NCBI RefSeq assembly: GCF_029227855.1
Contig: NZ_CP074356.1
DNA from: Escherichia coli
GTDB lineage: Bacteria > Pseudomonadota > Gammaproteobacteria > Enterobacterales > Enterobacteriaceae
Reading direction: 5' to 3' (one strand)
Length of the DNA: 64,000 nucleotides
Shown: positions 4,209 through 17,733 of the stretch, piece by piece
How the letters are laid out: every line of letters starts with the position of its first letter
Numbering within the stretch: the first letter of the stretch is position 1
Notes under the pieces: generated by a model
The model's input: the letters and a program-made list of their open reading frames with translations, nothing else
Databases searched by the model: none
What the model was told of the DNA's origin: nothing
Position numbers and translations under genes: made by a program

Positions 4209-5228
4209 ATGAAAAGCATTTTAATTGAAAAACCGAATCAACTGGCAATTATCGAACGCGAAATACCTACCCCGTCAGCGGGTGAAGTACGAGTAAAAGT
4301 GAAACTTGCCGGAATTTGTGGTTCAGATAGCCATATTTATCGTGGGCATAATCCTTTTGCGAAATATCCGCGCGTCATTGGACATGAATTTTTTGGCGTC
4401 ATTGATGCAGTGGGTGAAGGCGTGGAAAGCGCCAGAGTCGGTGAACGCGTTGCTGTCGATCCGGTGGTCAGCTGTGGGCATTGCTATCCGTGCTCTATAG
4501 GTAAGCCGAACGTTTGTACAACACTGGCTGTATTAGGTGTGCACGCTGACGGTGGTTTCAGTGAATATGCCGTGGTTCCGGCAAAAAATGCGTGGAAAAT
4601 TCCTGAAGCAGTGGCCGATCAATATGCGGTGATGATCGAACCTTTTACCATTGCGGCGAACGTAACCGGTCATGGTCAACCGACTGAAAATGATACCGTT
4701 CTGGTTTACGGTGCCGGTCCAATCGGCCTGACGATCGTTCAGGTATTAAAAGGCGTCTATAACGTTAAAAATGTGATTGTTGCCGATCGCATTGATGAAC
4801 GACTGGAAAAAGCGAAAGAGAGCGGGGCTGACTGGGCGATTAATAACAGCCAGACACCGCTTGGCGAGATTTTCGCTGAAAAAGGCATAAAGCCGACATT
4901 AATTATCGATGCGGCTTGTCATCCTTCTATCCTGAAAGAGGCCGTAATTCTGGCTTCTCCAGCGGCACGTATTGTATTGATGGGCTTCTCCAGTGAACCG
5001 TCTGAAGTGATTCAGCAAGGAATTACCGGAAAAGAACTCTCTATTTTCTCTTCACGCTTAAATGCAAATAAATTCCCGGTCGTTATCGACTGGTTAAGTA
5101 AAGGGTTAATTAAACCAGAAAAATTAATTACCCATACGTTTGATTTCCAGCATGTTGCTGATGCCATTAGTTTATTTGAACAGGATCAAAAACATTGCTG
5201 CAAAGTCTTACTCACTTTTTCTGAATAA
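4209..5228 (+). CDS. rspB: zinc-dependent dehydrogenase RspB
   Basis: 339-aa ORF from ATG 4209 (MKSILIEKPNQLAIIERE...), GHEFFG zinc-ADH motif and GAGPIG Rossmann motif. Confidence 0.95.
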   Translation: MKSILIEKPNQLAIIEREIPTPSAGEVRVKVKLAGICGSDSHIYRGHNPFAKYPRVIGHEFFGVIDAVGEGVESARVGERVAVDPVVSCGHCYPCSIGKPNVCTTLAVLGVHADGGFSEYAVVPAKNAWKIPEAVADQYAVMIEPFTIAANVTGHGQPTENDTVLVYGAGPIGLTIVQVLKGVYNVKNVIVADRIDERLEKAKESGADWAINNSQTPLGEIFAEKGIKPTLIIDAACHPSILKEAVILASPAARIVLMGFSSEPSEVIQQGITGKELSIFSSRLNANKFPVVIDWLSKGLIKPEKLITHTFDFQHVADAISLFEQDQKHCCKVLLTFSE

Positions 5229-5285
5229 TACCAATAACGGCGAATAAGTAGTACGCATCTTACCTCTTTTTTAGAGATAACCATT

Positions 5286-5378
5286 ATGACAATAGAAAAA
5301 CACGAAAGAAGCACTAAGGATTTGGTGAAAGCAGCAGTATCGGGATGGCTGGGCACTGCGCTTGAATTTATGGATTTC
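5286..5378 (+). pseudogene. ydfJ: 5' fragment (31 codons) of MFS transporter gene ydfJ, separated from the rest of the gene by the prophage
   Basis: ATG 5286 encodes MTIEKHERSTKDLVKAAVSGWLGTALEFMDF, then diverges into phage sequence; the reading frame resumes exactly at 52148 (MDFQLYSLGAALVF...). Confidence 0.75.
5364..5378 (+). repeat. prophage attachment-site core, left copy (GAATTTATGGATTTC)
   Basis: Imperfect direct repeat with 52143-52156 (GAATTATGGATTTC) at the two junctions between ydfJ sequence and phage sequence. Confidence 0.6.
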
Positions 5379-5415
5379 AAGAGTCATACGTGTCAACTAT
5401 TTGATAAATATTAAA

Positions 5416-6696
5416 TTAATTTTTCATTGCTTCGTTATGGGGCATGGTTGGGGCAAACTCGCTTAACTGTGTATTTAACAAAGCTACCTGTGCATTATTG
5501 TTTTCAGACATCCATTTTCCGTATACCTGAAATACCATTTGCGCATCTGCATGGCCCATCTGGTTTGCTATAAATGCCGGGTTAGCACCAGCTGTCAGCG
5601 ACCAGCAGGCATAAGTATGTCTCGACTGATATGATTTTCGATGGCGGAGTCCGGCACGTTTTATCGCTGCGTCCCACATCTGCCTTATTGAGTCAACGGT
5701 AAAATGGTCACCATAATTTTTTACTCTCGCTGACACTTCAGGTTGAAAAACAAAGGTGCATTTTTGTTTTTCTGTTCTGCCATACTCTCTGAGGTGAACA
5801 TCAATGATATGCTCTTTGCTCAGTCTCGTTAATGTCATCTGACTCCGGAGAGCGTCGATTGCTGGCTTAATAAGATGAATGACCCGATTGGTTCCCGCCT
5901 GTGTTTTTGGTACCGTGAAACGGTCTTTTGCTAAATTTCTCCTGATCATCATTGTTCCATTTTTCAGATCTATGTCCTCCCATCCAAGTGCACACAGCTC
6001 ACCAGGGCGAACGCCAGTATAAACAGAAACACACCATAAATTTTTTGCTTGCTGATTTCTGCACGCATCGATAAGACGGATAAATTCCTCCCGCGAAAGA
6101 GGATCCGGAATGGTTCTTGATTCCTTTAATGGCGAGATCCCCTTAAACGGATTATCTGGCAGGTAACCGTTATCAACACCAAACTGGAACACGGCGTTAA
6201 GATTTGTCATGTAATTATTTACAGTTACAGCCGATCTCCCTGGTTGTGTAACAATATAGTTACTTTTGGGGATCTGGTATCCAGTCAGTAGCTCTTTACG
6301 AACCTCCAGTAATTTTTCTTTATTAATCGATGAGGCAAGATTTTTTTCACCGATTATGCTCAGGATATTTTTGATGACGGCACGGTATGTGTTGAGTGAT
6401 GTTTTGGCGACTTCAGTTTCTTTCAGTGCCAGAAATTTTTCAGCCAGTTCTTTTATGGTTAAATCTTGTCGGGCCTCACCAAATTTTTCCAGATTGCGTG
6501 AGGAGGGAAACTGTTTTGCATAGTCGAAAACACCAGTTTTTATTGCGTAACAAACAGAGGCGCGTAGTTCACCTGCAACGCGCCTGTTTTTTGCTGTGTC
6601 AGGAACCCCCAGATTTTCCCTGACTCTTACGCCTTTATAAACAAACCAGATACGTAATTTCCCTCCATGGTTTTCCACGCCTGTCGGATATTTCAT
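5416..6696 (-). CDS. int: phage integrase (tyrosine recombinase)
   Basis: ORF 5416-6711; start at ATG 6696 with SD gagagg (MKYPTGVENHGGKLRIWF...); C-terminal catalytic region with RHTYA and terminal Tyr-containing motif. Confidence 0.9.
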   Translation of the reverse strand: MKYPTGVENHGGKLRIWFVYKGVRVRENLGVPDTAKNRRVAGELRASVCYAIKTGVFDYAKQFPSSRNLEKFGEARQDLTIKELAEKFLALKETEVAKTSLNTYRAVIKNILSIIGEKNLASSINKEKLLEVRKELLTGYQIPKSNYIVTQPGRSAVTVNNYMTNLNAVFQFGVDNGYLPDNPFKGISPLKESRTIPDPLSREEFIRLIDACRNQQAKNLWCVSVYTGVRPGELCALGWEDIDLKNGTMMIRRNLAKDRFTVPKTQAGTNRVIHLIKPAIDALRSQMTLTRLSKEHIIDVHLREYGRTEKQKCTFVFQPEVSARVKNYGDHFTVDSIRQMWDAAIKRAGLRHRKSYQSRHTYACWSLTAGANPAFIANQMGHADAQMVFQVYGKWMSENNNAQVALLNTQLSEFAPTMPHNEAMKN

Positions 6697-7054: not shown

Positions 7055-9526
7055 TTAAGAATCAGCCTGACTCGGGATCAGTTTTTGCCAGATAACTGAA
7101 ACGTATTTTGCCTGGTAACGGGCGTCATCAAGTGCATTATGCCGCTCACCTTCGAATGGAATAGCCGTTCTGGCATCGAAGTCTATGGCTTTCCCCAGCT
7201 CAACGATTGTGCGTACATCGCGATCGTTGTAGTAACGCCACGGGCAGGGGATCCCCTGCCGTTCGTATGAACGGCGCAAAATCGTGTTGTCGAAGTTGGC
7301 TCCATTTCCCCAGACCTGAACAAAAAATTCACCGGAGTTTTCGTCGATAAATTCCCGCAATTGTAACAGTGCATCATCTAACGGGATTTCATCGGTCATA
7401 ATGGCAGACTGCGCTTCACGTGATTGCTTCAGCCACCATTTAATGACGTCACGATCAATGACTCCGCCAGCAGTATTCAGATCTATGGTCTTGCTAAATT
7501 CCGGTCCCATATCTCCGGTTTGTGGATCGAAAAATATTGCGCCTATTGAGATAATCGGGGCATCAGGATTTTTTCCCATGGTTTCAAGGTCGATCATTAG
7601 ATGGTCACACGTCCTGCTGGTGGATGTGATAACGTGATGACCGTTCACCGTAATTAAGGGATCTGCCGTCTCGCCAGTTTCACTATCGCTGGCGTGGTCC
7701 TGAGCGCTGCCAGCATTCTCCTTGTGTGGATGTTCAGCGCCTTCCATTTTCTCCGAATCGTCTTCCTGAACTTCAACCTGGTTCTTGTCATCGAATGTTT
7801 CCTGGTATGTTGCGTCGCCCATCACCGCACCACATTCAGGGCAGTTGCCGCCGCCGGTCTGACCGTAGGCGGTGCAGATTTTTTCCGCTTCCTGTTGCGC
7901 TACTGGCTCAGGTTGTTTCGTTTCTGGCTCGTTTTGTAACGCATTTGGGCTGTTTTGTTCCGCTTTCTGGTCGTTCTGTTCCGTTTCTTGCTGGTTCTGG
8001 TTCACTGAATCGCGGGTTTCAATCCCCTTCACCCATTTCGGATCATTCGGATCGCTAATCCCTGCAACAAATTCACCACGTGATACAGCAAGCAACTGAT
8101 TGGCGTCAGGCTGGCTGATATTGGCTGCCTGCATAATTTTGTTTACTTCGTCAGCGGTAATTTTTACCGGCTCTGGTTGTGCGGTCGTGTCAGATGCACC
8201 AGTATTTTGTTGTGAACCTGAGTATGTACCGTTTTTGCGGGCGAAATATTCTTCTTTCGTGATTTCAGTAGCCCCGGCAGCCAGCGCCTTATCCAGACCA
8301 GAAAGTTTGTTTGCGCGACCGTATTTTTCGCCATCCTTGTCGGTAAAGAGGAAGTAGAACGGCCCCTCACGCTCTACAGATGGTTCGACTTCCACTTTGC
8401 ATTCAGTTTTTTCGTTGCCCGGAATTGCCGTTTCCACTGCATCAGTTTCTGGTACTGGCGACGAGAGAGTATCAGTTGCGCTCTGATTTGTTCCTTCATC
8501 TTCAAACACGCCCTTTGTAGTCAGGTATTTAGTAATGTATTTGTTCAGTGCCACAGGGTCTTTGTGAATGTCGATCGGACGTTCACGGACAAGGCCAAAA
8601 ATAGTCTGGCGGTCGTAGCGAAGGGCATCAGGCTGTTTGCGCATTGATGCCGAGATACGCTTCCAGTCTTCGCGGTCGTTGTCGATAACTTCATTTTTTG
8701 CCCAGCGATGGATGCTGCCGTCAATGTTTCCGGCATCCACATCACCAGGCCAGAGAGCGTAGGCCAGTTCGTCATCCAGTGTTTTCCATGTCTGCTTGTA
8801 TTCGCGATGAGTGGCAGCAATGACCGGGTTGATTTTTCCTGTTGAATTTTCAGTGTGCTGTTGATTGGCTCTGGCGCGGGCGAGATCAACAACAGACGTG
8901 TATTTTCCGGTTTCCTTGCGTTCATTTTCGCGACGTTTTTTCCAGATGCGCATCTCTGCCTGAATTTCGGGCCATTTAGCTCCAGGATTACATTTATGTT
9001 TAACCCACCCGATGGCATGCAGCTTAAGCTCCGGATACATGGCGTTAACTTCTGGCATTTTCATCAACGCTTCAACGATATGTCCGTCGAATGTTGCCAT
9101 GTCTTCCTGCAACAATTCCTGCGCGCTAATCACCATATCAACGGTGATGTTTTCACATGTGTCGAACTTAACCATGACAGCGTTCTGTACTTCAGGGGCC
9201 AGCTTGTCAAAAGTGACGTTCATCGGATCTGATTCAGTCTCAACCGGGACAAAGGAAGCAGACTCCTCATCCCAGCGGTTTTCCTGCATATATTCAGCAT
9301 CCCAGGAATCGAGGGCAGGGCGGGGTATACCGGGTTTATCCTCGCAAACAAGAAATTTATAAGCGCAGTCCTGAGCAACCGGATAATGTTCCAGGAATTG
9401 CCAGTGAAATTTTGCGCGGGCGCGACGTTCATCACCGGCTTCAATGGCAGTGGCTACAGCGATTGCACCTTCTTCCTTTATTGCCTGTTCGTCCGGAATG
9501 GCGGCGCAAATAAAGACTTTACTCAT
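7055..9526 (-). CDS. phage exonuclease, 823 aa, C-terminal DnaQ-like 3'-5' exonuclease domain
   Basis: C-terminal motifs DLETMG, NGANFD, HNALDDARYQAKY (DEDDh pattern); acidic low-complexity linker in the middle; position corresponds to the exo/recE slot of the early-left operon. Confidence 0.7.
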   Translation of the reverse strand: MSKVFICAAIPDEQAIKEEGAIAVATAIEAGDERRARAKFHWQFLEHYPVAQDCAYKFLVCEDKPGIPRPALDSWDAEYMQENRWDEESASFVPVETESDPMNVTFDKLAPEVQNAVMVKFDTCENITVDMVISAQELLQEDMATFDGHIVEALMKMPEVNAMYPELKLHAIGWVKHKCNPGAKWPEIQAEMRIWKKRRENERKETGKYTSVVDLARARANQQHTENSTGKINPVIAATHREYKQTWKTLDDELAYALWPGDVDAGNIDGSIHRWAKNEVIDNDREDWKRISASMRKQPDALRYDRQTIFGLVRERPIDIHKDPVALNKYITKYLTTKGVFEDEGTNQSATDTLSSPVPETDAVETAIPGNEKTECKVEVEPSVEREGPFYFLFTDKDGEKYGRANKLSGLDKALAAGATEITKEEYFARKNGTYSGSQQNTGASDTTAQPEPVKITADEVNKIMQAANISQPDANQLLAVSRGEFVAGISDPNDPKWVKGIETRDSVNQNQQETEQNDQKAEQNSPNALQNEPETKQPEPVAQQEAEKICTAYGQTGGGNCPECGAVMGDATYQETFDDKNQVEVQEDDSEKMEGAEHPHKENAGSAQDHASDSETGETADPLITVNGHHVITSTSRTCDHLMIDLETMGKNPDAPIISIGAIFFDPQTGDMGPEFSKTIDLNTAGGVIDRDVIKWWLKQSREAQSAIMTDEIPLDDALLQLREFIDENSGEFFVQVWGNGANFDNTILRRSYERQGIPCPWRYYNDRDVRTIVELGKAIDFDARTAIPFEGERHNALDDARYQAKYVSVIWQKLIPSQADS

Positions 9527-9996: not shown

Positions 9997-10482
9997 TATC
10001 GCGTCCTCAACAATGAATTTTGTGATGCAGTGCCTGGTGCCTCCAGGTGACGTTAACCAGTTAACAATTAACGTCGGATACAGAGAATCCACCCATAACA
10101 CTGTTTTTGGTTTTAACTGTTCCGCGTGCGCTCAGCCGCATTCACCGCATCACAAAATTCACTTTAAAAACGGCGGCAGAGCAGTCACGGAGTAAAACTG
10201 ATACCGCTAAACGTCACCAGAAAATTGATAACAGAGGGCGTTGCAGCGGGGTTGTCACTTAAGCGTATGGTCAACCTGACAACCCGGTGTCCTCAACGGG
10301 GAAGGAATAACCCCGCCATACTTACCGCCGCGCCATTTCGCGGGTTGCCACAACCGGAAGCGCACGGTCGAATTAAATTTAACGACACCGTACAGTGAGA
10401 CGAACTTCGCCGTGCGCTTTCGTGTTGTGTGCCTGCTTTTAACCACGTCAGGCGAGGTGGTATCCTTAAAATCACCACAGTT

Positions 10483-11383: not shown

Positions 11384-11791
11384 TTATTTTATTGATTTAT
11401 TTTTACGCGCTTTAAGCATTTCTTCGAAGAGTTTGTTGAAGTTTTCTACTCTTGCGCGCATTTCAGACAGCAAGGCTTCCTGCTCGGAAGATGGAAGAGC
11501 ATCGAATAATTCGATCAATTCTTTGTGGTTGGGAGTTAGCTCTGTTTCCACATGAAGTTCTTGTGCAGGCACTGGTGCCTTGTCTTCGTCACCAAACATT
11601 AGCCATGTAGGTGAGCACTTCAGAGCATCCGCTAAAGCAAACAATCGTTTTCCGACTGGCTGGGTTTCGTCTCTTTCCCATTGTGAAATTGTGACGTGAG
11701 CAACTCCAGCGAGGCGCGCAGCTTCTCGTTGTGTTAAGCGTAATTCTTTTCGTCGCGCCAGAACTCGCTGGCCTAGGGTTCTTGTATCCAT
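11384..11791 (-). CDS. DicA-like HTH (XRE family) prophage repressor
   Basis: 135-aa ORF; HTH LTQREAARLAGVAHVTISQWERDETQP; no peptidase S24 domain; divergent from a Cro/DicC-like gene. Confidence 0.85.
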   Translation of the reverse strand: MDTRTLGQRVLARRKELRLTQREAARLAGVAHVTISQWERDETQPVGKRLFALADALKCSPTWLMFGDEDKAPVPAQELHVETELTPNHKELIELFDALPSSEQEALLSEMRARVENFNKLFEEMLKARKNKSIK

Positions 11792-11840
11792 AGTTAGGTA
11801 ATTCTAATTTTTCTTGACTTAGGTATCCCGCGCACAATAA

Positions 11841-11858
11841 TGTTAGAAAAGTCTAACA
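11841..11858. promoter_or_regulatory. operator-like palindrome TGTTAGA-N4-TCTAACA (copy 2) overlapping divergent promoter region
   Basis: Perfect inverted repeat tgttagaaaagtctaaca between repressor and Cro-like gene; TTGACT hexamer at about 11813. Confidence 0.6.
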
Positions 11859-11871
11859 AGAGGGGGCTTTG

Positions 11872-12099
11872 ATGCTTAAAGTTGACGCAATTACTTTTTT
11901 TGGCAGCAAAACAAAGCTTGCCAATGCCGCAGGAGTGAGACTGGCAAGTGTTGCTGCTTGGGGGATACTGGTTCCTGAAGGTCGCGCGATGCGTCTACAG
12001 GAGGCATCTGGCGGGGAGCTTCAGTATGATCCCAAAGTTTATGACGAATATCGTAAGACGAAGCGGGCGGGGCGGTTGAACAATGAAAATCACTCCTGA
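11872..12099 (+). CDS. DicC/Cro-like small regulator
   Basis: 75-aa ORF MLKVDAITFFGSKTKLANAAGVRLASVAAWG..., SD aggggg, divergent from repressor. Confidence 0.8.
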   Translation: MLKVDAITFFGSKTKLANAAGVRLASVAAWGILVPEGRAMRLQEASGGELQYDPKVYDEYRKTKRAGRLNNENHS

Positions 12100-12604
12100 A
12101 CAGGCTCGTGAGGCTCTGGATGCCTGGATATGTCGACCAGGAATGACACAGGAGCAGGCGACGATATTAATCACTGAAGCATTCTGGGCTTTGAAAGAGC
12201 GCCCGAACATCGATGTTCAGCGTGTCACATATGAAGGTGGCGCGGTTGATCAGCGAGCGCTTAGCGTTAATCGAGTGAAGATATTCGAACGCTGGAAGGC
12301 TATCGACACCAGGGATAAGCGTGAAAAGTTCACAGCGCTAGTGCCTGCAATTATGGAGGCTATCCGGATTAGTGATTTCAGGTTGTATCGTGAGATCAGT
12401 GATGGAAAAAGTATTACGTACATGATCGCCGGGTTAAATAAAGAATATGGCGATGTGGTGGAATCCGGACTGCTTTTTGCAGATCCTGCCGTTGTAGATC
12501 GTGAAACTGACGAACTTATAGAAAAAGCAATTGCTTTCAAGCTTGCGTATCGACAGCAATACCAACAAAAAGCTGGATGGAATTATGAGTCTTCTTTTTG
12601 CTGA
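12083..12604 (+). CDS. hypothetical early regulatory protein (CII/YdaT-like position)
   Basis: 173-aa ORF overlapping the Cro-like gene stop; family not verified. Confidence 0.55.
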   Translation: MKITPEQAREALDAWICRPGMTQEQATILITEAFWALKERPNIDVQRVTYEGGAVDQRALSVNRVKIFERWKAIDTRDKREKFTALVPAIMEAIRISDFRLYREISDGKSITYMIAGLNKEYGDVVESGLLFADPAVVDRETDELIEKAIAFKLAYRQQYQQKAGWNYESSFC

Positions 12605-13550
12605 ACGCCCACTGGTTATAAACACGCAGCTGGCAATGAAAATCGGCTTAAACGAAGCCATTGTTTTGCAACAACTGCACTACTGGTTGAGAGATACCAA
12701 CTCCGGTATGGAATGTGATGGTGTTCGCTGGATTTATAACACAACGGAACAATGGCTGGAACAGTTCCCATTCTGGTCAGAGTCAACGTTAAAGCGCGCG
12801 TTTGCAAGTCTGAAAACGCTGGGGCTTTTGCGTTGTGAAAAGCTCAATAAATCAAAGCGCGATATGACCAATTTCTACACGATCAACTATGGGAGCGAGC
12901 TTTTAGATGGTGGCAAATTGAACGAATCCATCGGTTCAAAATGCGCCGCTCCATCAGGTCAAAATGACACGATGGAAGAGGTCAAAATGAAACGCTCCAT
13001 TGGTTCAAAACGATCCAATGTCATCGGGTCAAAATGGCCTGATGATCTTACAGAGAATACAACAGAGATTACTACAGAGAATAAAAACACTTTTCGTCCG
13101 GAAGCTTCGCAACCGGACCCGCAGACGACTGAACAGGATTTTTTAACCCGGAACTCCGACGCGGTTGTGTTTAGTGCGAAAAAACGCCAGTGGGGTAGCA
13201 GGGAGGATTTGGCGTGTGCGCAGTGGATCTGGGGGCGGATCGTGGGTCTCTACGAACAGGCAGCCAGTGATGATGGCGAGATCATGCGACCAAAAGAGCC
13301 TAACTGGACTGCCTGGGCCAATGACGTGCGCACAATGCGGATGCTGGATGGCAGAAGCCACAGACAAATTTGCGAAATGTTTGGTCGGGTTCAGCGAGAT
13401 CCATTCTGGGTAAAAAACATCATGAGCCCGTCAAAGCTCCGCGAAAAATGGGACGAACTGGTCATCCGCCTGGGACGTTCACCTGTACAGCGTTGTGTTA
13501 ATCATATTTCTGAACCGGATACAGAAATTCCGCCTGGTTTCAGAGGATAA
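12585..13550 (+). CDS. phage replication initiation / replisome organizer protein (O-like, with DnaT-like C-terminal region)
   Basis: N-terminal winged-helix-like region (NEAIVLQQLHYWL); internal iterons; C-terminal region resembles primosomal DnaT-type domain by pattern only. Confidence 0.65.
   Translation: MSLLFAERPLVINTQLAMKIGLNEAIVLQQLHYWLRDTNSGMECDGVRWIYNTTEQWLEQFPFWSESTLKRAFASLKTLGLLRCEKLNKSKRDMTNFYTINYGSELLDGGKLNESIGSKCAAPSGQNDTMEEVKMKRSIGSKRSNVIGSKWPDDLTENTTEITTENKNTFRPEASQPDPQTTEQDFLTRNSDAVVFSAKKRQWGSREDLACAQWIWGRIVGLYEQAASDDGEIMRPKEPNWTAWANDVRTMRMLDGRSHRQICEMFGRVQRDPFWVKNIMSPSKLREKWDELVIRLGRSPVQRCVNHISEPDTEIPPGFRG
12930..13040 (+). repeat. putative phage replication origin: five iterons (consensus GGT(T)CAAAATG) at about 23-bp spacing
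   Basis: Direct repeats at about 12933, 12957, 12979, 13002 and 13026 inside the replication gene, followed by an A+T-rich stretch with ACAGAGA repeats (13040-13100). Confidence 0.7.
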
Positions 13551-13590
13551 GTGTTGATTTCAGGTCATGAGGTAATTTTAAGGGGGACTT

Positions 13591-14022
13591 GTGGCAAAAG
13601 TTTTTACACAAGAAGAGCGGGAAAAAATTAAAGGGCAGGTGGTGGAACTCGTGCGCCAGAGCGGTCGTGAGACGTTACGGCAACTGGAAGCTAAAACAGG
13701 TGCGACTAGATATCTGATGAGCGTTCTTGCCAGAGAGCTGGTAGCCAGTGGCGATGTATACAACTCCGGCTACGGGTTATTCCCGTCTGAACAGGCGCGT
13801 AAGGACTGGCAACACGCCCGCAAAAAACTCTCGAGGGCAAAGGTGAAGAAACCTGCTGTGGTTGATCCGGACCTTATCTGGTCATTACCTGACGGAGAAA
13901 TACGCCGCTACGACAGTCGCCTAAACATAATCTGTCGCGAGTGCCGGAAGACTGAAGTTATGCAGCGTATACTCGCATTCTATCAGGGAAATGTTCGATA
14001 TCTATTGAAGCGACGAGATTAA
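13591..14022 (+). CDS. hypothetical phage protein
   Basis: 143-aa ORF with GTG start at 13591 and SD aaggggg; function unknown. Confidence 0.55.
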   Translation: MAKVFTQEEREKIKGQVVELVRQSGRETLRQLEAKTGATRYLMSVLARELVASGDVYNSGYGLFPSEQARKDWQHARKKLSRAKVKKPAVVDPDLIWSLPDGEIRRYDSRLNIICRECRKTEVMQRILAFYQGNVRYLLKRRD

Positions 14023-14345
14023 AGAGCATTAGTTCAGATGTGAATTGACATTTTCGTGGCACAAGATTAGCGCTAGCGTGGTCGTTTGGTTTGTGCCAAG
14101 AGCGGATAATGCTGACATTCCTATGCACTAATTAACGCAGAGCAAGCCAGTTAGTTGGTTATGGAAGTAAGTTGTAGCCAGCAACTATCACCATCGGAGA
14201 TATTTAGGGGGATGCACTCTAAGTTGTAGTTACTTTATAATGTCACTTTCAAAGCGGAAGCTTGTACAAAAGATGGATAAGCTTTTGTATAGTATGGGAT
14301 TCAAGAATCACTAAAAGATGACAACAGTACTTACAGGATGTGGCT

Positions 14346-14585
14346 ATGATCCGAATTATGATTAGAATATTTTCTTTGACATTCGTTGCTTGCGCTGGCT
14401 TTGCTGCATATCACTTCAATAGTGTGCCATTGATGTTCACTTCTGGTAGCTTTCTTGTAACATTTTTAGGTACATTTATTGTTAATAAAAAAAGTTCAGG
14501 GCATACAATAATTCAAAAAAGCGGTAGCCATTCAAAAAATAATCATACGGTCGTTTTTGGAAATAATGAAAACAAGCGAGGCTGA
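14346..14585 (+). CDS. small two-TM membrane protein, first gene of AT-rich operon
   Basis: ATG 14346 with SD agga; MIRIMIRIFSLTFVACAGFAAYHF... two hydrophobic helices and a basic tail; stop overlaps start region of next gene. Confidence 0.5.
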   Translation: MIRIMIRIFSLTFVACAGFAAYHFNSVPLMFTSGSFLVTFLGTFIVNKKSSGHTIIQKSGSHSKNNHTVVFGNNENKRG

Positions 14586-14587
14586 TC

Positions 14588-15184
14588 ATGGTTGGTGTTA
14601 CTCAAAGGTCAGGGAATTACTCACGTAATGTGCAGGTGGTTGTCGATTCTAACTCTGTTGATATTATAAAGTCTCCATCGATTTTTATGGATCTTGTTGG
14701 TATTTTAGTTGATTCGAATGTTATTGATCCTCGTACAAACAATGACTACGAGCCATATGATATTGAGAATAAAATAGACTTCAATGATGTTATAAAACAT
14801 AGAGAACGTATTGAAGGGTTCTATCTATATTCTTCGATGATAGATAAAGCGTATGAAACATTAAATGAAAGTATGCCTACTGCTAAGGAAACGGCACTGA
14901 AAAGCATCAATTCACGATATCTTGATTGTCAAGGAGATTTATTGCTTAAACATAGAGAAGCGTATAAGAGCTGCAAGGATGCTCAGGAACGGAATAATTT
15001 AAAGATTCAATTGGTAAGAGAGTTTGCAGATTGGATAATAGACAGTGTAATAGAGCACATCATTAAGAAATGCTTAAATTCTCTTATGGCAATGAATTAC
15101 ACAAGCGAAGAAATCGAATGCCATGCTTCTTTTATCGTTTATCATGCATTCGTAGAGTGTAAGATTCTGGAAAAACCAATATGA
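14588..15184 (+). CDS. hypothetical protein, 198 aa (candidate effector/partner of SMC-like ATPase)
   Basis: ATG 14588 with SD gagg; AT-rich codon usage; stop overlaps next start (ATGA). Confidence 0.6.
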   Translation: MVGVTQRSGNYSRNVQVVVDSNSVDIIKSPSIFMDLVGILVDSNVIDPRTNNDYEPYDIENKIDFNDVIKHRERIEGFYLYSSMIDKAYETLNESMPTAKETALKSINSRYLDCQGDLLLKHREAYKSCKDAQERNNLKIQLVREFADWIIDSVIEHIIKKCLNSLMAMNYTSEEIECHASFIVYHAFVECKILEKPI

Positions 15185-15417
15185 TTATCTCTGATGTAAC
15201 AAAACCAAGCCAAACCTTGTATTACCTGGGAGCTCGGTTATTAGAATGCATGAGTTCAAATGCTTATTCGTATGTTGATATTATAGACTTGTATAATGAA
15301 TTCAAATCTAAAAATAACAACTCTTCATTCACGCAATATATTTACACTTTAAATTGGCTATATTTATTAGGCCTGGTTGATGCTAACGAAAATGGAGATT
15401 TGATATTATGTTTTTGA
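15181..15417 (+). CDS. hypothetical small protein, 78 aa (candidate middle component)
   Basis: Translationally coupled to both neighbours: 4-nt overlap upstream, 10-nt overlap downstream. Confidence 0.5.
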   Translation: MIISDVTKPSQTLYYLGARLLECMSSNAYSYVDIIDLYNEFKSKNNNSSFTQYIYTLNWLYLLGLVDANENGDLILCF

Positions 15418-17132
15418 AACGGCTAATAGTCAGTTCTTTCAGGCTTGGAGTGATTCGTGATATCGAATTTCACATTGGCGTTAATTTGATTATTGACCGA
15501 AACACCTCCAGCAAAGAGCAAACTGGAAATGGTGTGGGAAAAACTACTGTATTAAGAGCTTTAGATTTTTGTTTTGGAGCAGAACAACTGAATTTTTATA
15601 CCGATCCTGAATTCAAGAAAGAAAATTCGGTTATAAAAAATTATTTGATAGAGAACGAGATTGAGTTTTGTTTAATTCTCACAAAAGATTTGAATAATAA
15701 AACTGCACCAGTAATAAAAATTAAGCGTAAAATTACATCTGAGACTAATAAAACGAAGGTTATAGCCTCAATAAATGAAGAGTCCTATACGAAGGCTAAA
15801 GATTTCAACGAGGCTTTAAAAAGAACATTATATCTTGATTCCGCGATAAAACCGACCATACGAGAGATTATGGGACGTGTTATTCGAAATACGCATGACA
15901 AGATGTCGAACGCATTAAAAACGATAAAAATGGGTTCTAATACACAATATGAAACGTTAAATCTGTTTATGTTTGGGTTCGGTAACTCACAGATTCTGGA
16001 TGAAAAACAGTCAGTGACTAAAGCCTATAAACTGGCGAAATCCGATTATGAAGTAATTACTCGCCATCGCTCAAAGAATGCTTTGGAACAAGCTATTGCA
16101 ATTATAAATAGAGATATTATAGCACAAGAAGAGTTAATTTCTAATTTTCAAGTGGCAGACTCTTATAATGATATGCTTGCTGAGTTAAATGAGTTAAAAA
16201 TTAAAATTAGTGAAGTTTCTATCACACTATCATCTTTGGAGTTTAAGCAAAAATTAAACGATAAGGCTATACTAGATCTGGAAAAAAGTCATGAAAATAT
16301 AAATACACTAGATCTACAGAAGTTGTACTTAGAAGCAACTGATCGGTTAGGTAACTTAAACAAAGAGTTTACTGAGCTACTTTCGTTTCATAATAAAATG
16401 CTTGTAAAAAAAGCTGAGTTTATTAGAAAACAAATGCAGCCAGTGCTGCAAGAAATTTCCAAATATAAAGATGAACTAAATAATTTATTGACTCAAGAAT
16501 CAGAGCTTTTAAAGAGTTTGTCTTCGCATGGGACATTGGCAGACCTGCAAATAATGCAAAAAAAATTAAATTCATTATTTGAAGAAAAAGGTGGGCTTGA
16601 AGCTGGACTACTTCAAATCCAAGAGATGGAGAACAACTTTAATATACTGAAAGCAAAGTTTAATGATGTGTCAGATAGATTAAAATCTAAACTTGACGAT
16701 TTTAACAAACGTCTTGCGCTATTCAATTCCTATTTTTCTTTATATACTAAAAAATTATATCAGGATGAATATATTCTTTCCTATAAAGATTCCTCCGGTT
16801 CTTTCGTTTTTACCATTGAACCTTTAGGAACTTTGCTCACATCAGGTAATCAGGGAGAAGGAAAAAAGAAAGCCCAGGTTGCCTCTTTAGATTTTGCCTA
16901 TTTATCTGTCCAGGAGTCTTTAGAAGCCAGAACACCACGTTTTATAGCTCATGATGGAATTGAGGCAATTCATGTAAATCAAATAAATAAGTTATTCGAG
17001 ATAGCTTCGGGGATTAATGGTCAATATATATTGGCTATTCTTAAAGACAAGTTGGAGAATATTGATCAAGACTTCATCAATAATAGTGTTGTGCTTGAGC
17101 TTGGGGAGGACGATAAGTTTTTTAGGCTTTAA
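15408..17132 (+). CDS. SMC-like ABC-type ATPase with long coiled-coil insert, 574 aa
   Basis: N-terminal RecF/SMC-like head with Walker A TGNGVGKTT (about 15522-15548); roughly 230-aa K/E/L-rich coiled-coil region; C-terminal signature-like SGNQGEG and Walker-B-like RFIAHDG followed by IEAIH. Confidence 0.7.
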   Translation: MFLKRLIVSSFRLGVIRDIEFHIGVNLIIDRNTSSKEQTGNGVGKTTVLRALDFCFGAEQLNFYTDPEFKKENSVIKNYLIENEIEFCLILTKDLNNKTAPVIKIKRKITSETNKTKVIASINEESYTKAKDFNEALKRTLYLDSAIKPTIREIMGRVIRNTHDKMSNALKTIKMGSNTQYETLNLFMFGFGNSQILDEKQSVTKAYKLAKSDYEVITRHRSKNALEQAIAIINRDIIAQEELISNFQVADSYNDMLAELNELKIKISEVSITLSSLEFKQKLNDKAILDLEKSHENINTLDLQKLYLEATDRLGNLNKEFTELLSFHNKMLVKKAEFIRKQMQPVLQEISKYKDELNNLLTQESELLKSLSSHGTLADLQIMQKKLNSLFEEKGGLEAGLLQIQEMENNFNILKAKFNDVSDRLKSKLDDFNKRLALFNSYFSLYTKKLYQDEYILSYKDSSGSFVFTIEPLGTLLTSGNQGEGKKKAQVASLDFAYLSVQESLEARTPRFIAHDGIEAIHVNQINKLFEIASGINGQYILAILKDKLENIDQDFINNSVVLELGEDDKFFRL

Positions 17133-17577
17133 GATTTGTAATTTGATAGATATGTAGATATCATTTTTCTCGCTCAAAACTGACAGTCAGATTTGAGCGA
17201 ATTGCTTATGTAAGTATTTCGCAGAATCATGCCATTTATATTTATTAGAACATACGTACTTTAAATGTGGGAGGCTGTCATGTTGGTTCTTAAATGTTCG
17301 CTGACTATTGCGGTGGTGCGGGTAATTTATTGTTCTGTTATTCTTATGGATCGCCTTTCTGACTGATTTCATATTGGCGAGATAACGGGAGTTAAGTAGA
17401 ATGCCTGCGGGTGCTTGAGGCTATCTGCCTCGGGCATGAACACCAACGGCAGATAGAGAAAAGCCCCAGTTAACATTACGCGTCCTGCAAGACGCTTAAC
17501 ATTAATCTGAGGCCAATTTCATGCTAGACACATGTAGGTTAGCCTCTTACGTGCCGAAAGGCAAGGAGAAGCAGGCT

Positions 17578-17733
17578 ATGAAGCAGCAAAAGGCGATGTT
17601 AATCGCCCTGATCGTCATCTGTTTAACCGTCATAGTGACGGCACTGGTAACGAGGAAAGACCTCTGCGAGGTACGAATCCGAACCGGCCAGACGGAGGTC
17701 GCTGTCTTCACAGCTTACGAACCTGAGGAGTAA
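17578..17733 (+). CDS. hokD: Hok-family type I toxin HokD
   Basis: 51-aa product MKQQKAMLIALIVICLTVIVTALVTRKDLCEVRIRTGQTEVAVFTAYEPEE matches remembered HokD/RelF. Confidence 0.85.
   Translation: MKQQKAMLIALIVICLTVIVTALVTRKDLCEVRIRTGQTEVAVFTAYEPEE

Follow-up and report, generated by a model that had tools for sequence, protein, structure and literature searches.

A replication gene and the repeats within it

The stretch of Escherichia coli DNA considered here (64,000 nucleotides of contig NZ_CP074356.1, referred to as the window) contains a lambdoid prophage that runs from an integrase gene at 5416 to about 50800, and our subject is the gene for its replication initiator (12585–13550, + strand; 321 amino acids), in which a segment of DNA at 12897–13136 is likely to be the prophage's origin of replication. 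The open reading frame (ORF) is O-like: it matches phrog_391 ('replication initiation O-like') at 1e-91, and part of its product aligns by BLASTP with lambda O (see below). An AlphaFold2 (AF2) model of the protein has two confident domains, residues 1–110 (12585–12914, + strand), a predicted iteron-binding winged helix, and residues 175–300 (13107–13484, + strand), homologous to the C-terminal domain of lambda O. Between them, residues 111–173 have predicted local distance difference test (pLDDT) scores of about 40 and form a predicted disordered linker; at the extreme C-terminus is a tail, RCVNHISEPDTEIPPGFRG (13491–13547, + strand), which profile search and direct comparison find to be common to E. 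coli DnaT. It is the linker that is encoded by the repeats to which a preliminary description of this DNA had drawn attention, placing them, as the phrog_391 match bears out, inside a replisome-organizer gene.

The repeats are six iterons in 23-bp phase (12906–13044), with the core GGTCAAAATG. Repeat finding gave five 23-nt units (CATCrGkTCAAAAyG...; iterons 1–5, 12929–13044, no strand) starting at 12929, 12952, 12975, 12998 and 13022, a spacing of 23, 23, 23 and 24 bp, and Tandem Repeats Finder (TRF) also returned a period of 23. In register with these is a degenerate copy, iteron 0 (GGCAAATTGA, 12906–12928, no strand), in whose place phage mEp460_4F5 has a good iteron. The preliminary description, which had five direct repeats about 23 bp apart, was therefore right about the spacing, and about the positions to within 1 bp, but one short in the count. 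Eight sites in the window match GGTCAAAATG with no more than one mismatch, where 6.6 would be expected by chance; four of the eight are packed into 94 bp in constant phase, and a Poisson estimate for such a cluster arising anywhere in the window is about 2.5e-7. Several iterons show outer dyad symmetry (palindromic arms such as CATTGG-N11-CCAATG), which is consistent with binding by a dimer. A period of 23 is not divisible by 3, so that successive copies of the motif fall into all three reading frames; their translations are IGSKC, SGQND, EVKMK, IGSKR and IGSKW. The repeats had been said to encode IGSK units, and three copies do, but the others lie in other frames; the peptide repeat is, to judge from this, a by-product of the DNA repeat.

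Adjoining the iterons is an A-rich block (13045–13090, no strand) of three 12-mers, ACAGAGAATACA, which we propose as the DNA-unwinding element; it is the A+T-rich run with ACAGAGA repeats mentioned earlier, present as a 12-mer repeated 2.8 times (13050–13083, by TRF). The block has a G+C content of 0.30, with 24 A and 8 T, and within it is the 40-mer of lowest stability in the gene (a free energy of -44.3, against a gene mean of -55.0 with a standard deviation of 3.6), which is also the least stable across 11800–14100. At its right is a GC-rich inverted repeat, GTCCGG-N11-CCGGAC (13096–13118, no strand), taken as the right edge of the origin; an inverted repeat is also found in the related loci L001, L002 (10-nt arms, one mismatch) and L004.

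Constraint on DNA rather than on protein

A codon alignment was made of 63 distinct homologous genes, 69–100% identical, drawn from the window, mEp460_4F5 and loci of the IMG/VR database. In nt 12897–13136 (codons 105–184, no strand) synonymous diversity fell to 0.038, against 0.272 in the rest of the gene (Mann–Whitney p = 3e-18), with no reduction in amino-acid diversity (0.16 inside the segment and 0.13 outside). Variable sites were spread evenly over the three codon positions inside the segment (26/31/29), whereas third positions dominated in the domains flanking it (26/16/84 and 53/41/112). These diversity statistics, and the reading of one motif in all three frames, point to selection acting on the DNA itself, and it is the constrained segment as a whole that we propose as the origin. 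The element had been placed at 12930–13100; it is indeed there, but the constraint extends more widely, to about 12897–13136.

Might the repeats have some other role, either as protein repeats of the linker (IGSK, TExT), as an overlapping small ORF, or as operator-like sites for autoregulation or for another regulator? Three copies of the iteron do specify IGSK, and the 12-mers specify TENT, TEIT and TENK; an antisense ORF of 43 amino acids (12959–13090) is open in all 63 close relatives; and iteron-binding initiators often autoregulate as well. Against this, the iteron occurs in all three reading frames, and the synonymous sites are those under the greatest constraint; in distant relatives every alternative frame is interrupted within the segment, so an overlapping ORF was rejected as the cause of the synonymous constraint (two short ORFs are open across the close relatives, but trivially so, because the DNA there barely varies). 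The position of the segment is also homologous to that of ori-lambda, and its layout of iterons, unwinding element and inverted repeat is that of lambda, so that we consider a role of this kind, to the exclusion of an origin, extremely improbable.

Likeness to ori-lambda and to the iterons of relatives

Residues 142–294 of the initiator (153 residues) align with residues 130–270 of lambda O (34% identity, E 1e-26, BLASTP), and with tblastn the O genes of lambda and many Stx phages were matched in their C-terminal half. The alignment places the 12-mer block on the A+T-rich region of lambda, with the iterons just upstream, in the same part of the gene as the annotated iterons of lambda. The earlier comparison with the ori-within-O arrangement is borne out by this positional homology, by the location in the linker-coding segment, by the constraint on the DNA and by the matching inverted repeat. 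In both systems the origin lies inside the initiator gene, where the linker is encoded, and in both the order is one of phased, partly palindromic iterons, an A-rich, purine-skewed unwinding block and a GC-rich inverted repeat (GTCAGAG-N14-CTCTGAC in lambda, at the homologous position). The iterons have a central TCAAAA in common, but there are six of 23 bp in the window and four of 19 bp in lambda, and the unwinding block is a threefold 12-mer, unlike that of lambda. The proteins and modules differ too: lambda O (which ends ..TDWIYGVDL) has no DnaT-like tail, and the window, unlike the O-P module of lambda, has no P gene.

In relatives with N-terminal domains 38–72% identical to that of the window, the position and the 23-bp phase of the iterons are kept and the core is changed. 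The core is GGTCAAArTG in Klebsiella MC05 (L002; N-domain identity 72%), GGGCAAAATGCCCC in SopranoGao (L003; 53%), GGTCAAATTGrCC in L296 (48%), TCGGCAAGATTTACCA in L299 (44%) and TAGTCAAAATGA in L298 (38%), while the relative 689R6, in which a different N-domain accompanies the same C-domain, has 15-bp GTCAAAATCTGAC repeats. The 12-mer ACAGAGAnTAC adjoins the iterons, in two or three copies, in every relative with the window's N-domain family (at 13045–13090 in the window, 2947–2970 in L003, 2172–2213 in L296, 550–573 in L298 and 3424–3447 in L299); it is retained despite the altered iteron core and irrespective of the C-domain or of the presence of a loader gene downstream, and is missing from the relative with the different N-domain. 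On these comparisons the 12-mer travels with the N-domain and not with the C-domain, and besides melting easily it may serve as a specific site of contact, perhaps when single-stranded.

A chimeric initiator

The initiator appears to be built of a winged helix, a disordered linker, a lambda-O-like domain and a DnaT-like tail. In the model, the N-domain has a fold of the RepA_N/DnaD N-terminal domain type, as in iteron-binding initiators, and residues 2–168 match phrog_6493 ('DnaD-like helicase loader') at 8.5e-37. Neither the whole protein nor an alignment of the C-domain gave a match in Pfam, which leaves the sequence outside the Pfam RepA_N and DnaD families, and there is no Phage_rep_O domain by Pfam at the N-terminus, the BLASTP likeness to lambda O being limited to residues 142–294; a profile search of the PDB with the C-domain sequence returned nothing. 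The protein is a chimera, of a RepA_N-like N-domain, a lambda-O-like C-domain and a DnaT tail. The staphylococcal RepA_N initiators (of pSK41/pTZ2162; PDB 4PTA, 4PQL, 5KBJ) are plasmid-borne and act in Gram-positive hosts, whereas the window's initiator belongs to a phage, has no Pfam RepA_N match and has a C-domain like that of lambda O.

With no Pfam family, the initiator family is unannotated. RefSeq's PGAP calls the window's protein 'hypothetical protein', and labels in four other records (LR597641, LR595868, MT261384, KF766125) are inconsistent, being either the PHROG-based 'replication initiation O-like' or the RAST-type 'Primosomal protein I'. The tail match to DnaT explains the second of these labels, which is a mis-annotation resting only on a 20-residue tail. 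The family is abundant: a query made up of the 3' end of ydaT, the initiator gene and lygF found matches in 4203 of 5426 complete E. coli genomes, and a place covering at least 80% of the query in 1583 of them.

A replication module with and without a loader gene

The gene after the initiator is lygF (13591–14022, + strand); its product, the 143-amino-acid unknown of the preliminary description, is assignable to DUF977/LygF (PHROG 'Ren-like exclusion protein'). No loader of the DnaC or P type follows the initiator, as had been said, and comparison of ten early-region ORFs with PHROGs revealed no helicase, loader or primase. Nor is any helicase or loader annotated in the complete 45-kb genome of phage HannyBb or in the 8.5 kb around the module in mEp460_ev081. 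LygF was considered as a substitute loader and rejected, because it is found also downstream of the dnaC-like gene in modules that have one; PHROG groups it as Ren-like.

The DNA of the window is 100% identical to that of several E. coli chromosomes and 96–99% identical to that of phages HannyBb, PhiR42_1 and mEp460_ev081. In IMG/VR there are 63 loci whose initiator is 86–100% identical to the window's; in 30 of them a dnaC-like gene is directly downstream, and in 33 the initiator is followed straight away by lygF. The dnaC-like gene (phrog_50, 4e-79) specifies a protein that shares 48% identity with E. coli DnaC along its whole length, and is a clean cassette of about 745 bp between the stop codon of the O gene and the ribosome-binding site of lygF (compare 13550–13568 in the window, without it, with 4966–5712 in locus L028, with it). 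In loci of the mEp460_4F5 type, where the initiator is 69% identical to the window's, the cassette is absent from 15 of 15. The lack of a loader in the window reflects a dnaC-like cassette that some loci carry and others do not, and the module appears to work with or without a dnaC of its own.

An alternative is that the origin is real but the module crippled, the dnaC-like cassette having been deleted so that the prophage can no longer start its own replication. Many E. coli prophages are defective, and the cassette, where present among the 30 loci, lies exactly between O and lygF. However, the loader-less arrangement is that of three phages deposited as isolates (HannyBb, PhiR42_1 and mEp460_ev081) and of all the mEp460_4F5-type loci; presence and absence of the cassette are both seen in four different initiator types; and the host supplies a DnaC, to which the phage paralogue is 48% identical. 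Moreover, a survey of lambdoid phages (Casjens and colleagues, 2025; PMC12315714) gives 34 of 314 as having an O homologue only. A crippled module is therefore very unlikely.

The same survey calls the replication of O-only lambdoid phages 'not yet understood'. Its example LLS resembles the window in having one O homologue and neither a helicase nor a loader, and in CI/Cro it is closest to mEp460_4F5, another phage with a solo initiator. In what the survey says of O-only modules the arrangement is recorded, and an origin, DNA constraint, a dnaC polymorphism or a DnaT tail does not figure there; the word DnaT is absent from its text. Among modules that do pair an initiator with a DnaC-like protein, Rac (YdaU-YdaV), Gifsy-2 (O) and Shigella phage 75/02 Stx have the same initiator tail as the window and the same place in the operon, which is downstream of cro/cII-like genes, though YdaU, the Gifsy O and the 75/02 initiator have N-domains and C-regions that lack homology to those of the window's initiator. 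About half of the near-identical relatives of the window's initiator show this initiator-plus-DnaC arrangement, whereas the window, HannyBb, PhiR42_1 and mEp460_ev081 are without the cassette.

A C-terminal tail held in common with DnaT

The last 21 residues of the initiator, VQRCVNHISEPDTEIPPGFRG (ending ..SEPDTEIPPGFRG), correspond to the C-terminal end of DnaT from E. coli. Set directly against DnaT of K-12, the protein matches over its last 19 residues, with 14 of the final 17 identical; phmmer aligned residues 301–321 with PDB chains 2ru8, 6aep and 9zbt_D; and the protein fits the pattern of the extreme tail of DnaT, ..[VI]N.[VI]SEPD..IPPGFRG. The NCBIfam model of whole DnaT (NF002770) gave 16.4 bits, against a cut-off of 201, with residues 302–321 alone matching. 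Nothing in the initiator resembles the N-domain of DnaT or the PriB-binding linker, and in a fold search with the initiator's C-domain the three-helix bundle of DnaT did not appear; DnaT itself does not bind an origin.

Phage initiators bear the tail in combination with seven or more types of N-domain and seven or more non-homologous C-regions, and in these sequences it behaves as a portable short linear motif. Among 100 informative IMG/VR loci with initiators ending ..IPPGFRG, the next gene was DnaC-like in 62 and there was no loader in 38, while a gene of the lambda-P type or the DnaB type followed in none. Annotated examples fall into the same two kinds, with a DnaC-like gene in 75/02 Stx, Gifsy-2 and Rac (YdaU), and solo in Tritos, SPN1S, PAT1 and a Klebsiella phage. 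Conversely, the tail was missing from all 77 initiators upstream of lambda-P-like genes (all of them close relatives of lambda), and P0150, which is related to the window's initiator but has no tail, is followed by a Toprim-DnaB_C primase-helicase. In the loci sampled, then, the tail is found only on initiators with a loader of the DnaC type or with none.

Species-representative genome contigs with organism titles were scanned for the tail; as short ORFs give chance matches, the scan bears a qualitative statement on Enterobacterales only. Among the matches listed, genuine tails were in DnaT orthologues and prophage initiators of Enterobacterales genera and of two doubtfully assigned metagenome-assembled genomes (MAGs), and in no others. 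Two short contigs titled 'MAG: Collinsella sp.' (Actinomycetota; L361, JAIJJM010000125.1, and L362, JAIJJM010000412.1) encode E. coli-type tail-bearing phage initiators ending ..CVNHISEPDTEIPPGFRG; they are probably bin contamination by enterobacterial prophage DNA. In K-12, dnaT and dnaC are adjacent, and the order of that operon (the gene for the tail-bearing protein, then dnaC) is the order found in phage modules with a loader.

There is a precedent for an O-like protein with the C-terminal motif of DnaT in DopC, which has an O-like N-terminus and a 'DnaT_C' motif, and whose gene, beside a P-like gene, was drawn next to DnaT-DnaC in a paper of 2017 (PMC5509034). DopC is without iterons and is paired with a P-like protein, in which it differs from the window's initiator, with its iterons and no loader. 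By the account of two papers (PMC4132743, PMC13377028), it is not known through which partner DnaB-DnaC is recruited by DnaT; the papers on DnaT structure assign no partner to the tail, and a literature search for 'PPGFRG' found no paper.

How might the helicase reach the origin?

The following sequence of events would account for these features. Dimers of the N-terminal winged helix would bind the six part-palindromic iterons in their 23-bp phase and form a nucleoprotein complex like the O-some. Strain would then melt the adjoining block of A-rich 12-mers, the least stable DNA of the gene, with the GC-rich inverted repeat as the right-hand boundary. Finally, as the phage has no loader gene, the C-terminal part of the initiator would itself bring host DnaB-DnaC straight to the bubble, the contact most likely being made by the 19-residue tail common to DnaT, the host protein that passes DnaB-DnaC to restart sites. 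That the initiator binds the iterons, that the DNA melts at the 12-mers and that the segment is active as an origin, taken jointly, we judge to be very probable from the sequence comparisons. Recruitment of the helicase through the tail, most likely by contact with the DnaB-DnaC complex, is put forward more tentatively, as something that may quite possibly happen. Overall, it seems likely that 12897–13136 is the origin of a lambdoid prophage, situated in the linker-coding part of its own initiator gene and used in this way.

Host DnaA might be supposed to aid the loading of the helicase, as in the iteron plasmids pSC101, RK2, F and P1, which have a Rep protein and no loader. Loader-less iteron replicons do commonly use DnaA with DnaB-DnaC. 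In the window, however, no DnaA box is present within 12897–13136 even when one mismatch is allowed, the nearest perfect TTWTNCACA is at 13602, in lygF, and the density of boxes around the origin is at the level of chance, with no adjoining cluster. The box scan thus lends no support to a mechanism assisted by DnaA, which we regard as highly improbable.

The lack of a DnaA-box cluster is equally what would be expected if the origin were real and obtained its helicase through the restart primosome of the host, with PriA-PriB recognizing either the bubble opened by the initiator or an R-loop formed by rightward transcription. The tail would then dock the initiator to this machinery or take the place of DnaT, after which host DnaT/DnaC would load DnaB. 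Apart from these initiators, the tail is known in DnaT alone, a component of the preprimosome (PMC13377028), and its distribution among the matches listed, which apart from the two doubtful MAGs is that of the Enterobacterales, is that of the clade with PriB, DnaT and DnaC; the route, moreover, is one used by the ColE1/pBR322 plasmids and phage phiX174 (PMC5778457). On the other hand, some 60% of tail-bearing initiators have a DnaC paralogue of their own encoded directly downstream, which is better accommodated by a direct hand-off from initiator to loader, and the window's protein has nothing resembling the N-domain or the PriB-binding linker of DnaT, nor did a fold search with its C-domain bring up the three-helix bundle. 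We therefore think the restart primosome, though the foremost of the alternatives, an unlikely route here.

Direct recruitment of DnaB-DnaC by the initiator has difficulties of its own, and several observations weigh against it or against the origin to which it is attached. The unwinding block is only moderately A+T-rich, and conservation of its 12-mers could in part be at the level of the protein, because they encode the TExT repeat (TENT/TEIT/TENK). The association of the tail with the type of loader comes from counts made with no phylogenetic correction, and the 77 initiators paired with P-like genes are not independent, because all are close relatives of lambda; DopC, being paired with the P-like DopE (PMC5509034), is a possible counter-example. 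Removal of residues 154–179 from DnaT weakens only modestly its binding of single-stranded DNA in vitro (PMC4132743), so the tail may contact single-stranded DNA and not a protein. A paper of 2026 on the preprimosome, based on cryo-electron microscopy, favours the N-domain of DnaT over the tail as the recruiter of DnaB/DnaC. The low pLDDT of the tail in the AF2 model can be set beside these points, yet is neutral either way.

Neighbouring genes

The immunity region is of the DicA/DicC type, like those of Rac and Qin. Upstream of the initiator gene are a gene for a DicA-like repressor (11384–11791, - strand), one for a DicC/YdaS-like regulator and a YdaT/CII-like gene. The early-left operon includes the small RNA DicF (10171–10222, - strand; Rfam RF00039, 64.8 bits), which fits an immunity region of this kind, and encodes an exonuclease of 823 amino acids (phrog_2082; 7055–9526, - strand). 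No recombinase to go with it turned up in the PHROG scans of the ten early-region ORFs, a lack reminiscent of the lambdoid phages with 'no Rec module' in PMC12315714.

Downstream, between lygF and a hok/sok locus, is a low-GC island (14340–17132) with four ORFs (81, 198, 78 and 574 amino acids). The 574-residue product matches a candidate defence family of PADLOC (PDC-M68B, 1.3e-41), with faint similarity to LmuB and AriA; PADLOC gave no match for the initiator or LygF. Relatives hold other cargo at this site, which looks like a moron or defence hot-spot. The hok/sok-type toxin-antitoxin locus (17409–17733) comprises a sok RNA (Rfam RF01794, 115 bits; 17409–17583) and a Mok/Hok-like ORF (17521–17733).

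Significance

The location of an origin within its initiator gene is textbook lambda biology, so that the window provides a well-supported further example and not a new principle. What varies here is the chimeric initiator, the unwinding block made of 12-mers, and a module that occurs with or without its own dnaC. The replication module is one of the loader-less lambdoid class, and its initiator is very common in enterobacterial prophages, although it has no Pfam family. The existence of near-identical initiators with and without the dnaC-like cassette amounts to a natural experiment, and the 240-bp segment together with the initiator gene is a candidate for a compact replicon.

Beyond this, the tail joins two questions: by what means DnaB-DnaC is passed from DnaT to restart sites, and how a helicase is loaded in O-only phages. 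A bolder suggestion, which we consider rather doubtful, is that the tail of about 19 residues, carried by DnaT and by many unrelated initiators of enterobacterial phages, recruits or activates DnaB-DnaC, whether the DnaC be that of the host or a phage paralogue. O-only phages would thus replicate by means of an initiator that mimics DnaT, and the dnaT-dnaC operon of the host would be the domesticated counterpart of a phage initiator-dnaC module.

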